Positions 2,051 to 58,935 of a DNA stretch of 64,000 nucleotides are shown piece after piece. Source of the stretch: Promethearchaeota archaeon (GTDB taxonomy: Archaea > Asgardarchaeota > Lokiarchaeia > Sigyniarchaeales > SOKP01); assembly GCA_019058295.1 (NCBI GenBank), contig JAHPZI010000030.1, forward strand, positions 1 through 64,000, read 5' to 3'. Below the pieces are notes generated by a model, which saw only the letters and a program-made list of their open reading frames with translations, was not told the DNA's origin and did not search any database. The translations under genes and the position numbers were made by a program. Every line of letters begins with the position of its first letter. The stretch's first letter is position 1.

Positions 2051-3018
2051 ATGTTAAATAAAAAGCAGTTTAATGAGTTATTTGAAAAGCGCTTAATAAA
2101 GGAGAGTTATGAAGAAGAAATAAATATTATTTTAACTGGCCAATATGGAAAAGCTCTGGAATTGCTACGTGATGCAGAAGCAACACAACTATTCCCTGCT
2201 TTAGTAGGTCCACCAGGTGTTGGAAAAACTATTCTCTGTAGATATTTTGCTAGCCTTAGAGCGAAAGAGGATAAAAATAAGAGTTTTCACTGGATTACTT
2301 TTGATGAATCGATTAAACCTTCCCATCTAATCGGAATTTTCCTCGCATAAGCGATGGAACCGAAAGTTTTGATCCCGCTATTACTTTAAAACAAGGATTC
2401 ACTTTAGAAGCATTTCATCCTGGACCTTTACTCAGTGCTATGTTAGAAGGCGGTACATTTTTGGCAAATGAAATTAACAGAGCGACGGAATACTCACAAA
2501 ATACACTATTAGAACCTTTAGAAGAAGCTTCTATTGCTATTCCTCATTTAGGTCGAATTAAAGCAGATAATGATTTCTTTTTTATATGTGCTATGAATCC
2601 AGAAGAACTTTCTGGAACTCATCGTTTATCTGAAGCTTTAAAAGATAGAATAAAAGTATGGATAAAGTTAGATTATCCTCAAAAGGCAACGGAGTTAGAC
2701 ATTATTAGAATTAATTTACCCGAGCATTTTATAATTGAGGAATCTGAATTAGAATTAATCTATTCCATTATTGAGGCAACTCGAAAAAATAAAATTGATA
2801 TTGAAATTCCCGCTTCAATAAGAGCAGGAATTGCTATGGCTAAGTTATTAGGTCACCAAAGAGCATTAGAAAAAGAAAAAAAAATTAGTGAAAAAGACTC
2901 ATATTCTTACTTGTCCGATATCGCAAAGCATGTATTATTAGGTAGTCTTAAACCTAAACCAGGTATGAAAGTTGAAGATATTGTTGAAGGTATTATTGCT
3001 AGAACTTTAGGAGGGTAA
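2051..3018 (+). CDS. MoxR-family AAA+ ATPase, spliced: join(2051..2336,2366..3018), 312 aa
   Basis: Walker A GPPGVGKT in ORF 2051-2350 and Walker B region FLANEINRA in ORF 2440-3018; removing 2337-2365 gives continuous SHLIG-SFDPAITLKQGFTLEAFHPGPLLSAMLEGG. Confidence 0.85.
2337..2365 (+). other. Putative 29-nt BHB-type mRNA intron in MoxR ATPase gene
   Basis: Central helix TCGG(2331-34)/CCGA(2360-63); inner stem TTCC-TCGC-ataa-GCGA-t-GGAA; 3' bulge AAG; 5' bulge is 4 nt (AATT, relaxed); cuts after 2nd bulge nt restore frame. Confidence 0.8.
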
Positions 3019-3027
3019 AAAGGATTC

Positions 3028-5523
3028 ATGGGTATTTTTCCTGAAAATCCATGTGAATTTGCTGTCGAATTTATACGTAGGATGAGATATCATCCCGATA
3101 TAGTCCAGATGCCTTCCTCGAGACAAGTATTATCTATTCCAAAATTAATTTTAGCGCGATACTATCGCAAAGGCTCAGTCAATCCAAATGATTTTATTGA
3201 AATTAGCACTATGACTTCCTTTCCTGATAATCAAAAACTTGCTAAAAATCTTGCTTTTGAAATCCTTTTCCCAAACTATAAAAAAGATTTGATGCCATCC
3301 TTTTTTAATGATAAAGAATTTCTTGATCAGATTAATCAAGAGGATTTCATGAATCAAGAAGTAAAATCTGAACTAGATCAACTTCAAGATCTAATTGATG
3401 ATATAGAATTGACTAAATCAATAGATACAGATTTAATTGAGCAAATGGAACAATTTCTTGAAGAATTGAACCAAAATAGAGATAAACAACCTTATGAATC
3501 TGCTTTACAGTTTTTCAATGATGATTCTGAATTATATAAAGAAGAAATAACCTCTTTTGAAGAGTTAATTGAAGAAGCGAAAAAAAGAATGATGGAGAAA
3601 ATTAATTCACTCTCGCCGGAGGATCTTAAAGCGGGAGCAGAATTGGATTTGAATGACTTAATTCAGCAGGCATCCAAACGAGATTGGGAAAAGATTACGA
3701 GTAAAGCGCTTAATGACCAAGACATTACAAAAGATATTAATGATTTATTTAAATCTGGTAACTTTGAAGATCTTATTAAATCATTGAAGTTCTTGAATGA
3801 AACGGATGCCATTCCTAAAGATCAAATTCAAAATATGAAAGATGCTCTTGAAAATCAAATACAAAATCTTGACCAACTGTTTCAGGCCGCAAAAAATTTA
3901 GGTGATACTCCTAAATTCGATCAAAATAATGTGTTGGACAATTCTTTACAACAATCTTCTTTTGAACATAATTTTAATCTAGCCAATTCATTGGATCAAT
4001 ATTTCGGTACTAATTTAAGAGCTCAATTGCTTGATAAGTTTAATCAACAATTCAGTGGTTCTAATATGAACCTTTCACTTGAAACTCTCACAAAAAATGC
4101 ATTTACAAACAAATCATGGAATGACCTTTTAAATCAAGCACTTGAAAATGCGATTCAAGATGCATTGAAACAGAAGAAGAAATTCGAAGGATTTAAATCT
4201 TTATCTCATCAATTACAACAACTTGCAAATTCTTGTGAAAATATGCATTGTAGTCAAAAAATGGAACAGCATCTGCCAGAAATAATTAAAAAAGCTCTTG
4301 AATCAAGTGAGAATCCTAACGAATTAAAAAATGTTGTTGAATTTCTTAGAAGTATTGGTTTAAATCCAGAATCAGAAGACATAAAACGAGTTGGAAAAAA
4401 ACTTGAAATGCCTGATGACGAAATCTTTGAATTAATAGAACCAAATTACCAACTTCTAAAGAAGCTAATTGATAAAAATATTGGAGACTTCGAAAGAATA
4501 AACAATTTAATGAATCAAATAAAGGATCAAATTAATAAAGATCGAATGAAAGAGCTTTTATCAAGTGCTTTAGCATCTGAAAATAGAGATGCATTAGGAG
4601 CTCTTGGGCATTTTAATTTAGAAGAAGCTTTAAAAGGAGCTGGACAAATTGGTGGGGAAGAGGGACAAGATATGCTAATTCAAAGCCTTAGTGCTGGGAC
4701 CGGAGAAAACTTACTGAAACAGTGGTTTATACACCGTCAGAATTTACATGCTGATGCGAAACAAAAAGTAAAGGAATTAGCAAAAAAAATGCTTATTGAA
4801 CTGGGAATCTTTTATTCTCGAGCACGTTTAGGTAGTTCGGTGTCGGGACCAATTCCTATTAATATCGTAAGACCATTTACTATAGGTGATGATTTCGAAA
4901 ATGTAGATTTAGAAGAAACTATTAATAACATTATGGAAAAGGGAAAAAAGCTCGATCATATCAATTACGATGATTTTTTTGTTTTCGAAACTGCAAAAGG
5001 TTTAAGAAGCGCTTGTTTTGAACTCGATATTAGCGGGTCAATGTCCGGAGAAAAATTAGCTTATATGGCAATCTGTGTGACAATGTTGGTTTATGGAATG
5101 AGGAAAGATGAACTTGGTATTACTTTCTTTGAATCAGACACGCACATTCTAAAAGAATTAGATCAAAAAATAGATTTAGAAAAATTGGCAGATGAATTGC
5201 TTACGATTAACGCACGAGGTGGAACAATGGTTCAAAAAGCACTTGAATGGGCTAGGCGTCAATTTAAAGAAAAATCTGCCACTCGTGAAAAGCTGAATGT
5301 TCTCTTTACAGACGCTGAGATTTTCGATCTTCAGCAATCGCTTAATGAATTAAGAATTTTTCGTAGTATGGGGATCGATTTTATTTTAGTTGTGCCAGAA
5401 AATTCATTCAACCTTAAAGATGCAAAAAAAATCGTAAAAATTGCTGGCGGACAGCTACTAACAATAAAAGATTGGAATGAATTTCCCCAATTAATATCAG
5501 ATATAATTAAATCGAAATTTTAA
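3028..5523 (+). CDS. VWA (MIDAS) domain protein, MoxR partner
   Basis: C-terminal ELDISGSMSG (DxSxS), GGT, LFTDAE; directly downstream of MoxR. Confidence 0.85.
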   Translation: MGIFPENPCEFAVEFIRRMRYHPDIVQMPSSRQVLSIPKLILARYYRKGSVNPNDFIEISTMTSFPDNQKLAKNLAFEILFPNYKKDLMPSFFNDKEFLDQINQEDFMNQEVKSELDQLQDLIDDIELTKSIDTDLIEQMEQFLEELNQNRDKQPYESALQFFNDDSELYKEEITSFEELIEEAKKRMMEKINSLSPEDLKAGAELDLNDLIQQASKRDWEKITSKALNDQDITKDINDLFKSGNFEDLIKSLKFLNETDAIPKDQIQNMKDALENQIQNLDQLFQAAKNLGDTPKFDQNNVLDNSLQQSSFEHNFNLANSLDQYFGTNLRAQLLDKFNQQFSGSNMNLSLETLTKNAFTNKSWNDLLNQALENAIQDALKQKKKFEGFKSLSHQLQQLANSCENMHCSQKMEQHLPEIIKKALESSENPNELKNVVEFLRSIGLNPESEDIKRVGKKLEMPDDEIFELIEPNYQLLKKLIDKNIGDFERINNLMNQIKDQINKDRMKELLSSALASENRDALGALGHFNLEEALKGAGQIGGEEGQDMLIQSLSAGTGENLLKQWFIHRQNLHADAKQKVKELAKKMLIELGIFYSRARLGSSVSGPIPINIVRPFTIGDDFENVDLEETINNIMEKGKKLDHINYDDFFVFETAKGLRSACFELDISGSMSGEKLAYMAICVTMLVYGMRKDELGITFFESDTHILKELDQKIDLEKLADELLTINARGGTMVQKALEWARRQFKEKSATREKLNVLFTDAEIFDLQQSLNELRIFRSMGIDFILVVPENSFNLKDAKKIVKIAGGQLLTIKDWNEFPQLISDIIKSKF

Positions 5524-5531
5524 AGTGCAGA

Positions 5532-58123: not shown

Positions 58124-58173
58124 TAGCTATTTTGGAAAAGAAAATAATTTTACTTAAAAATTTGGAGTTATTT

Positions 58174-58797
58174 ATGAAACCTTGGTTATTTGATATTCTT
58201 GCCTGTCCCATGGATAAATATTTCCCCCTAAAATTATATATTTTTTCTTTTGAAACTAAAACAGATGAATTTCAATCAAATTTAGATATATATCAAGAGA
58301 GAGACCTTGATTTGATTAAAAACCAAAAAATTATTGAAATCTCGGAAGATAAGGGAAATTTATATATTAAAGACAATATTATAATTGAAAAAAATCCAGC
58401 CGAGACATATTTTAAACTTGTTATTTCAAGTATTAACGAATTAAACAATATTATAGATAAATCACCTCATGATATTACTAAAAAATGTTTTGCTATTATT
58501 TTAACTGAAATTCATGATAAAATCTTAGAATTTTCAAAAAATATTAATGCAGAAAAAATTGAAAATCTATTACCTGAATTATATTTTCTAAATAAAATTA
58601 AAATTGAAACTGAAATCGAATCTGGATTATTATTCTGCGAAAAATGTAATCGTTGGTTTCCAATCATAGAGACCATCCCTCAAATGCTTCCTGACGAATA
58701 TAGAGATAAAGAAAAAGATACTCAATTCCTTAAAACCAATAAAAATTTATTGGATGACGAATTTCTAAAACAAGATCTAAAACCTTTTAAACTTTAG
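58174..58797 (+). CDS. Trm112-family methyltransferase activator with long insertion
   Basis: MKPWLFDILACPMDK...IESGLLFCEKCNRWFPIIETIPQML; GGAG upstream of ATG 58174. Confidence 0.85.
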   Translation: MKPWLFDILACPMDKYFPLKLYIFSFETKTDEFQSNLDIYQERDLDLIKNQKIIEISEDKGNLYIKDNIIIEKNPAETYFKLVISSINELNNIIDKSPHDITKKCFAIILTEIHDKILEFSKNINAEKIENLLPELYFLNKIKIETEIESGLLFCEKCNRWFPIIETIPQMLPDEYRDKEKDTQFLKTNKNLLDDEFLKQDLKPFKL

Positions 58798-58832
58798 ATT
58801 TCTATCAAATTTTAAAACCAATAATTAGCTAT

Positions 58833-58935
58833 AGCCCGGTGGTGTAGTGGCCAAGCATTTGGGGCCTTGAACCCCGCGACTATTCGTCCCGATACGAGGT
58901 GCATCGTGAACACGGTTCGAATCCGTGCCGGGCTA
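58833..58935 (+). tRNA. tRNA-Gln(TTG) with intron 58881..58910; no encoded CCA
   Basis: Acceptor AGCCCGG/CCGGGCT (A1-U72), anticodon stem TGGGG/CCCCG, anticodon TTG 58867-69, T arm CACGG-TTCGAAT-CCGTG. Confidence 0.92.
58881..58910 (+). other. 30-nt tRNA intron at non-canonical position 48/49
   Basis: Central helix CGCG/CGTG, bulges AC^T and AA^C; removal restores variable loop CGAC and T stem. Confidence 0.85.

Follow-up and report, generated by a model that had tools for sequence, protein, structure and literature searches.

Putative bulge-helix-bulge introns of about 30 nucleotides in protein-coding genes of a Lokiarchaeial genome

Two protein-coding genes, encoding a MoxR-like AAA+ ATPase (hereafter MoxR) and Sec61beta, and one tRNA gene (tRNA-Gln) of an Asgard archaeal genome were each found to be interrupted by an insert of ~30 nt lying within a 3-4-3 bulge-helix-bulge (BHB) motif. 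The analyzed stretch of DNA (the window) comprises the first 64,000 nt of contig C30 (JAHPZI010000030.1) of genome G000, an assembly of 3.2 Mb with about 30% GC and a completeness of 79%. The genome belongs to the Lokiarchaeia, in line with the probable Asgard origin proposed in a first-pass annotation of the window, and the relatives used for comparison (Promethearchaeota/Promethearchaeia) are denoted by G- and L-numbers. Based on motif geometry, exact ortholog junctions, covariation, the presence of endonuclease genes and the recurrence of the inserts across genes and genomes, the window inserts are probably endonuclease-spliced BHB introns in mRNAs (estimated probability of roughly 85%); from the same body of evidence we infer that the RNA is cut and ligated in vivo, and that EndA and RtcB are the enzymes responsible.

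In the canonical BHB of archaeal pre-tRNAs, the 5' strand runs from an outer helix through a 4-nt central helix and a 3-nt bulge into an inner helix, while the 3' strand runs from the inner helix through the 4-nt central helix and a 3-nt bulge into the outer helix, and each strand is cut after the second base of its bulge. Two 3-nt bulges on opposite strands around a 4-bp helix (4/4 pairs) were found in MoxR, Sec61beta and tRNA-Gln, and a strict scanner for this geometry returned both mRNA inserts at exactly the predicted cuts. When the cut is placed after bulge base 2, the predicted junctions of the three window genes and of the census genes described below match intron-less orthologs to the base, in line with the exact in-frame products that the first-pass annotation had derived for the two mRNA inserts from the endonuclease cut rule. 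Its description of both mRNA inserts as 3n+2 in length (29 and 32 nt) with an in-frame TAA, and of all three inserts as ending in AA, was likewise confirmed in the sequence, whereas the U4 run and AUAA loop that it had noted are present in both window mRNA introns but are not general in the larger intron set. Flanking helices were also found: Sec61beta has an outer exon-exon helix (h) of 9 bp and an inner stem (h') of 6 bp, while MoxR, with an h' of 4+4 bp and an h of 1-2 bp, represents a relaxed form.

In the proposed pathway, the central helix of the pre-mRNA would form between four exonic bases located just upstream of the 5' splice site and a four-base stretch close to the 3' end of the insert; it would be bordered on each strand by a bulge of 3 nt, and adjoined by an inner hairpin and an exon-exon helix of varying extent. 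A heteromeric (alpha-beta)2 EndA, which would also process the heavily interrupted tRNAs of this lineage, would cut after the second base of each bulge, and ligation of the exons by RtcB would bring the reading frame back to the exact base. A transcript left unspliced, with its stop codon or frameshift, would yield only a truncated product. At the genome level, the introns would constitute a population of ~30-nt elements with fast gain and loss between species, residing in housekeeping and metabolic genes alike.

The MoxR gene is present as two open reading frames (ORFs) in different frames (2051..2350 and 2440..3018), with one AAA domain divided between them according to Pfam. Removal of the insert is predicted to give HLIG-S(A^GT)-FDP, where the caret marks the cut. 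Orthologs were sampled from 41 relatives and 61 species-representative loci, and the junction was readable in about 55 of them. In about 50 intact orthologs exactly one codon lies between ...H(F/L)xG and FDPAITL, as predicted by the BHB cut; this codon is Ser in close orthologs, and Ser, Ala or Thr in the most distant ones. An insert of 29 nt at the identical site was found in 5 of the ~55 readable orthologs, namely those of G000 and of four other species (L075, L086, L087 and L094), and both exons are open and conserved in all five genes (exon 2 of the window gene shows 96% amino-acid identity to G005 and G007). The other MoxR-like genes of G000 are merely 37-39% identical, indicating that there is no intact second copy. 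The two strands are predicted to bulge at AA^U and AA^G, the AUAA loop caps an inner stem of 4 bp, the outer helix consists of AA/UU only, and the BHB-constrained fold lies 0.5 kcal/mol from the minimum free energy. Among the five introns the inner stems differ (UCGC/GCGA, GUGU/ACAU, AUGC/GCAU twice, and GGCG/CGCC), while the central helix is invariant. In the five-sequence alignment, which is a small sample, 92% of cells pair, compared with at most 45% when partners were slid; both sides have changed in four pairs, and the observed covariation score was reached in 0 of 500 shuffles. The intron-bearing genes are scattered on the MoxR tree, a distribution that requires at least 3-4 gains or losses.

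For Sec61beta, GGUC and GAUU make up the central helix, with UA^A and AA^A as bulges; here the BHB-constrained fold lies 1.3 kcal/mol from the minimum free energy. The predicted spliced product reads GGAGL^MRFFED, and about 28 intact orthologs, that of congener G002 among them, read ...GGAGL MRFFEDSSIG or a close variant and lack exactly 32 nt at the insert site. The insert is shared with the closest relative, G007, with two substitutions, in a locus otherwise 93-100% identical. A single match to the Sec61beta family was found in G000, indicating the absence of an intact second copy. The predicted splice-junction peptides include ...SHLIGSFDPAITLK and, for Sec61beta, ...GGAGLMR. Exact searches of metagenome_contigs for the spliced uL11 and Sec61beta junctions returned none, an uninformative outcome given that the collection is mostly DNA and an exact match was required.

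ARAGORN with default settings (no intron option) and Rfam at the gathering score returned nothing in the window, missing the tRNA-Gln gene, and ARAGORN calls a 75-nt tRNA-Gln once positions 58881-58910 are left out. At the syntenic loci G010:C17:39775-39853 and G015:C169:9054-9127 the tRNA-Gln ortholog is uninterrupted, the bases absent being precisely 56-85 of the query, which correspond to those positions; together with the CGCG/CGUG central helix, these orthologs confirm the 30-nt intron of the same BHB geometry proposed at first pass. The tRNA-Gln orthologs G002:C18:5065-5202, G006:C4:915-1052 and G001:C6:1113254-1113389 matched only in pieces, set wider apart than in G000, which suggests additional or different introns in these three genomes. 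At G000:C22:30303-33335, beyond the window, 27 tRNA genes without introns form a tight array that covers most amino acids, unlike the scattered tRNA genes of the same genome, which are mostly interrupted; the array may derive from a virus, a mobile element or contamination.

The coordinates of the window features, and of the inserts found elsewhere in G000 and in its relatives, are given in Table 1.

Table 1. Location of the interrupted genes, their exons and the candidate BHB introns. Coordinates without a prefix are positions in the window; those prefixed only by a contig are in G000.
Feature	Location	Strand	Length	Basis and remarks
MoxR-like AAA+ ATPase, exon 1	2051..2336	+		ORF; Pfam AAA_5 at positions 4-44; last base is the A of Ser codon A^GT, which the insert splits
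MoxR BHB intron	2337..2365	+	29 nt	In-frame TAA at 2348-2350; strict BHB match; ortholog comparison; covariation
MoxR central helix, exonic strand UCGG	2331..2334	+		Pairs with intronic CCGA at 2360-2363; invariant in five intron-bearing orthologs
MoxR exon 2	2366..3018	+		Begins with GT of the Ser codon, then FDPAITL...; Pfam AAA_3 at positions 56-129 and AAA_5 at 53-138
Sec61beta exon 1 (MSRRQSRRKKRRSKTSPMPLGGAGL)	56111..56184	-		Sequence; orthologs; first 25 codons
Sec61beta BHB intron	56079..56110	-	32 nt	In-frame TAA; strict BHB match; ortholog comparison
Sec61beta exon 2 (MRFFEDSSIGVKIGP... plus transmembrane helix, stop codon included)	55932..56078	-		PF03911 match
tRNA-Gln(UUG) gene	58832..58936	+		Interrupted at a non-canonical position between variable region and T arm
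tRNA-Gln BHB intron	58881..58910	+	30 nt	Central helix CGCG/CGUG, 4/4; bulges AC^U and AA^C
Thioredoxin ortholog	46343-46687	+		Intact
Cold-shock-domain gene insert	C22:19804-19857		54 nt	Census
Acyl-CoA dehydrogenase-like gene insert	C22:94227-94257		31 nt	Census
uL11 insert	C30:126695-126724		30 nt	Census
Actin-family gene insert	C2:177067-177097		31 nt	Census
4Fe-4S protein gene insert	C17:37729-37757		29 nt	Census
ArgG (argG) BHB insert	C2:55238-55267		30 nt	Found outside the census; removal restores YSGGLDTS
Thiolase-like gene (L134), first BHB mini-intron	G001:C6:188666-188695		30 nt	Census
Thiolase-like gene (L134), second BHB mini-intron	G001:C6:188854-188882		29 nt	Census
Thioredoxin BHB intron	G001:C6:1128412-1128441		30 nt	Directly before the WCGPC active site
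RtcB BHB intron (L260)	G002:C3:15989-16017		29 nt	Central helix UUGG/CCAA; bulges AU^A and AA^A
RtcB BHB intron (L261)	G006:C13:33458-33486		29 nt	Central helix UUGG/CCAA; bulges AU^A and AA^A

A census that made no use of the motif was performed by tblastn in both directions between G000 and 2.65 Mb (57%) of the congener G001, retaining orthologous alignments broken by 10-150 extra bases or by stop-containing insertions. Seven inserts were found in G000, and the MoxR (29 nt) and Sec61beta (32 nt) inserts were recovered among them without any structural prior; the argG insert is the eighth in this genome. The analyzed part of G001 yielded about 12 inserts, hosted by genes for thioredoxin (intact in the window), eS26, Sir2, a prismane/CODH-family protein, an OYE-type reductase, a flavin reductase, an AMP-binding enzyme, a GH38 mannosidase and an AAA-VWA chelatase-like protein, by one unnamed gene, and by a thiolase-like gene with two introns about 160 nt apart.

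Nineteen ortholog-defined mRNA introns from the census of both genomes were tabulated. The central helix forms with 4/4 pairs at the ortholog-defined junction in 17 of the 19, compared with about 2-3% expected at a random position. Lengths of 29-32 nt were found in 18/19 (mode 30), the first base is A in 15/19 and the last two bases are AA in 14/19, and all three codon phases are occupied. Nearly all of the tabulated introns bring a stop codon or a frameshift into the incoming frame, with stops soon after the 5' junction; nearly all scored introns of 30 nt (3n) contain an in-frame stop, and no stop-free 10-codon inserts with BHB geometry were found in the G000/G001 census. This pattern could reflect selection against read-through of unspliced mRNA, or just the AT-rich composition together with the detection method. 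A conserved sequence family was considered and rejected, pairwise identity having a mean of 37% and a maximum of 59%: the introns are alike in structure, not in sequence.

Judging from the seven census inserts and the use of 57% of one comparator, we estimate that each genome may hold roughly 10-25 such mRNA introns, affecting about 0.5-1% of genes. The first-pass annotation had suggested many such introns genome-wide, which holds as to order of magnitude (8 in G000 and about 12 in 2.65 Mb of G001), but extrapolation from two cases in 64 kb, to a density of ~3%, overshoots, the window being a lucky sample. It had also named three sequence-based checks: a comparison of orthologs for presence or absence of the inserts, identification of the EndA architecture, and a genome-wide scan for BHB motifs joining split ORFs. 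The first proved favorable, since related genomes lack the inserts exactly at the predicted splice points, as did the second, described below; the scan did not yield matches above shifted-cut controls.

The outcome of that scan is one of several observations that weigh against splicing of these inserts. The strict hBHBh' motif gave 182,379 matches in G000 and is thus common by chance. Requiring that ORFs be joined left about 1,430 matches (about 1,350 in shifted-cut controls), a further no-start-codon filter left 309 (278-356 in controls), and a refined motif (28-33 nt, AA end, inner stem of at least 4 bp) left 7 (6-10 in controls). Since motif scans performed no better than controls, they are unable to count introns, and ortholog comparison was used for this reason; as the motif alone is not rare, the signal beyond chance is its coincidence with junctions set independently by orthologs. 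In the MoxR BHB the outer helix amounts to no more than 1-2 bp, and an h of 0-1 bp was found in several census introns. Several census introns have a mismatch, located either within the central helix or at the foot of the inner stem, and would therefore need a broad-specificity enzyme. In addition, no match to RtcB (PF01139) was found in the 79%-complete G000 assembly.

The position of MoxR near the contig end also belongs among these adverse points. From about position 2405 onward the gene and everything downstream of it are 98-100% identical to G007, while identity is only about 78% in exon 1, in the intron and over the initial 13 codons of exon 2, and upstream of 2040 the two genomes do not align. 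The break near 2405 lies 40 nt 3' of the intron, an ORF at 2..1957 adjoins MoxR only in L075, itself intron-bearing, and no G007-like MoxR 5' part was found elsewhere in the G000 assembly. The segment from the contig start to ~2405 may have been acquired, intron included, through true recombination, or this end of the contig may be chimeric. The insert and both of its flanks are inside one segment, and hence the join did not create the insert; no comparable break was observed at the Sec61beta and tRNA-Gln loci.

With respect to the processing enzymes, G000 encodes two paralogs of the splicing endonuclease EndA, located at L123:1168-1773 and L124:1426-2031; each has 201 aa and matches both PF01974 and PF02778, with an N-terminal and a catalytic endonuclease domain. 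Judged from their sequences, the His and Lys context of the catalytic site is preserved in just one of the two, and they are accordingly regarded as putatively alpha- and beta-like. This agrees with the report (PMC5829648) that Asgard archaea have an (alpha-beta)2 EndA with an L1 loop, an enzyme tolerant of relaxed BHB motifs. Of the 8 congeners searched, 7 have RtcB. A 29-nt BHB intron interrupts the RtcB gene itself in G002 and G006, within ...GGVGY^DINCG..., and its removal gives the intact G001 sequence; making the ligase would then need pre-existing ligase.

Among the alternatives, the one that fares best is excision at the RNA level by some other nuclease/ligase pair, or a cleavage that mainly down-regulates the mRNAs without productive re-ligation. 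The failure to find RtcB in the assembly is in its favor, as is the Haloferax BHB in a 5' untranslated region (5'UTR), which is cleaved by EndA with a regulatory outcome (PMC7714728). Nevertheless, the geometry is that of a canonical EndA substrate, EndA alpha and beta are encoded in the lineage and RtcB in congeners, and the frame is restored to the base in every case, which argues for productive ligation; we regard this alternative as improbable. Bypass elements (T4 gene 60, byps of Magnusiomyces mitochondria) are retained in the mRNA and have matched take-off and landing codons, and by analogy ribosomes might hop over the ~30-nt hairpin, the insert staying in the mature mRNA. Like those elements, the inserts described here are short, structured and stop-containing, lie in otherwise intact genes, and form short stable hairpins, nearly all with an incoming-frame stop soon after the 5' junction. 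Such recoding is very unlikely, as repeats at the boundaries span 0-4 nt, mostly <3 nt, which falls short of matched codons; a GGA-to-GGA hop in MoxR would add two residues found in no ortholog, and L075 has no landing GGA. Furthermore, hopping leaves the 4-bp exon-intron helix with its two 3-nt bulges unexplained, and the same geometry occurs in the tRNA-Gln gene, where translation is irrelevant.

Equally slight is the chance that the inserts are assembly or sequencing errors, or hairpin DNA insertions resembling miniature inverted-repeat transposable elements that inactivate genes: although the genomes are metagenome-assembled and the MoxR 5' segment is a mosaic, relative to the closest relative, at a contig end, the inserts recur in assemblies that different studies produced independently, the exons remain open and conserved in all five intron-bearing MoxR genes, intact second copies are lacking, single-copy core genes are among those interrupted (Sec61beta, uL11, eS26, and RtcB in congeners), compensatory changes mark the evolution of the hairpins, and the lengths and positions of the inserts are exactly those removed in frame by a BHB cut.

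If the mRNAs are spliced as proposed, the consequences would reach beyond the window. Archaea are regarded as having almost no introns in protein-coding genes, and about 0.5-1% of Lokiarchaeial genes would be wrongly annotated by gene callers, appearing as split, truncated or missing; with core markers such as uL11, eS26 and Sec61beta among them, completeness estimates and phylogenomic marker sets would be affected. Asgard mRNAs would be routinely spliced by an enzyme family (EndA/TSEN, RtcB) that eukaryotes kept for tRNA and XBP1 splicing, which bears on the origin of intron-tolerant, splicing-dependent gene expression before eukaryogenesis, and the rapid gain and loss at identical sites would offer a tractable system for how BHB introns spread. 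A bolder and rather doubtful extension is that this dynamic genome-wide population of ~30-nt introns makes dozens of genes dependent on EndA and RtcB and is used for control, as a frame-setting switch like XBP1/HAC1 combined with an RtcB autoregulatory loop. In that event, the affected genes would be those for ribosomal proteins, actin, Sec61beta and, in some species, RtcB, and translation would be at least partly uncoupled from transcription in the closest archaeal relatives of eukaryotes.

In the literature searched, a BHB intron in coding sequence is documented only for cbf5 (PMC7714728, PMC2738675), and no report of BHB introns in Asgard mRNAs was found; a 2026 preprint census of Asgard tRNA introns covers tRNA genes only, with no mention of mRNA introns in its text. 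The mechanism is therefore known, while the substrate class, scale and host lineage appear to be unreported in that literature. The window contributes two mRNA cases and one tRNA case with base-exact confirmation by orthologs, a density estimate obtained without the motif, and the observation that motif scans alone are insufficient.

The crenarchaeal cbf5 intron is reportedly treated in Watanabe 2002 and Yoshinari 2006. It is a BHB intron in the coding sequence of the pre-mRNA of a pseudouridine synthase of Crenarchaeota (Yokobori 2009, PMC2738675). The window inserts resemble it in being located in coding sequence, in having a host with a heteromeric EndA, and in their patchy presence among relatives with gain and loss; unlike cbf5, which is one gene in another phylum, they belong to an Asgard host with many unrelated interrupted genes per genome, fall into a narrow 29-32 nt size class, include genes with two introns, and are known here from DNA comparison. 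The tRNA BHB introns of archaea share the identical 3-4-3 geometry and cut rule, relaxed forms included, and the window tRNA-Gln intron of 30 nt ends in AA like the mRNA introns, yet in the present case the substrate is mRNA and splicing would decide the reading frame. In Haloferax volcanii, the HVO_1309 mRNA has a BHB in its 5'UTR that is processed by the splicing endonuclease (Schwarz 2020, PMC7714728). It likewise represents an mRNA serving as substrate of this enzyme, although it is located in an untranslated leader rather than in coding sequence, in a euryarchaeon with a homodimeric EndA, and no frame is restored. In eukaryotes, HAC1/XBP1 mRNA is cleaved by IRE1, with ligation by RtcB in metazoa, and the XBP1 intron measures 26 nt. 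Those transcripts differ in the nuclease (IRE1), in the recognition motif and in being a single regulated target, and no membership in that system is claimed for the archaeal inserts; what the two would have in common is a protein endonuclease acting at hairpin-defined sites in mRNA, an RtcB-type ligase, and a very short intron that changes the reading frame.

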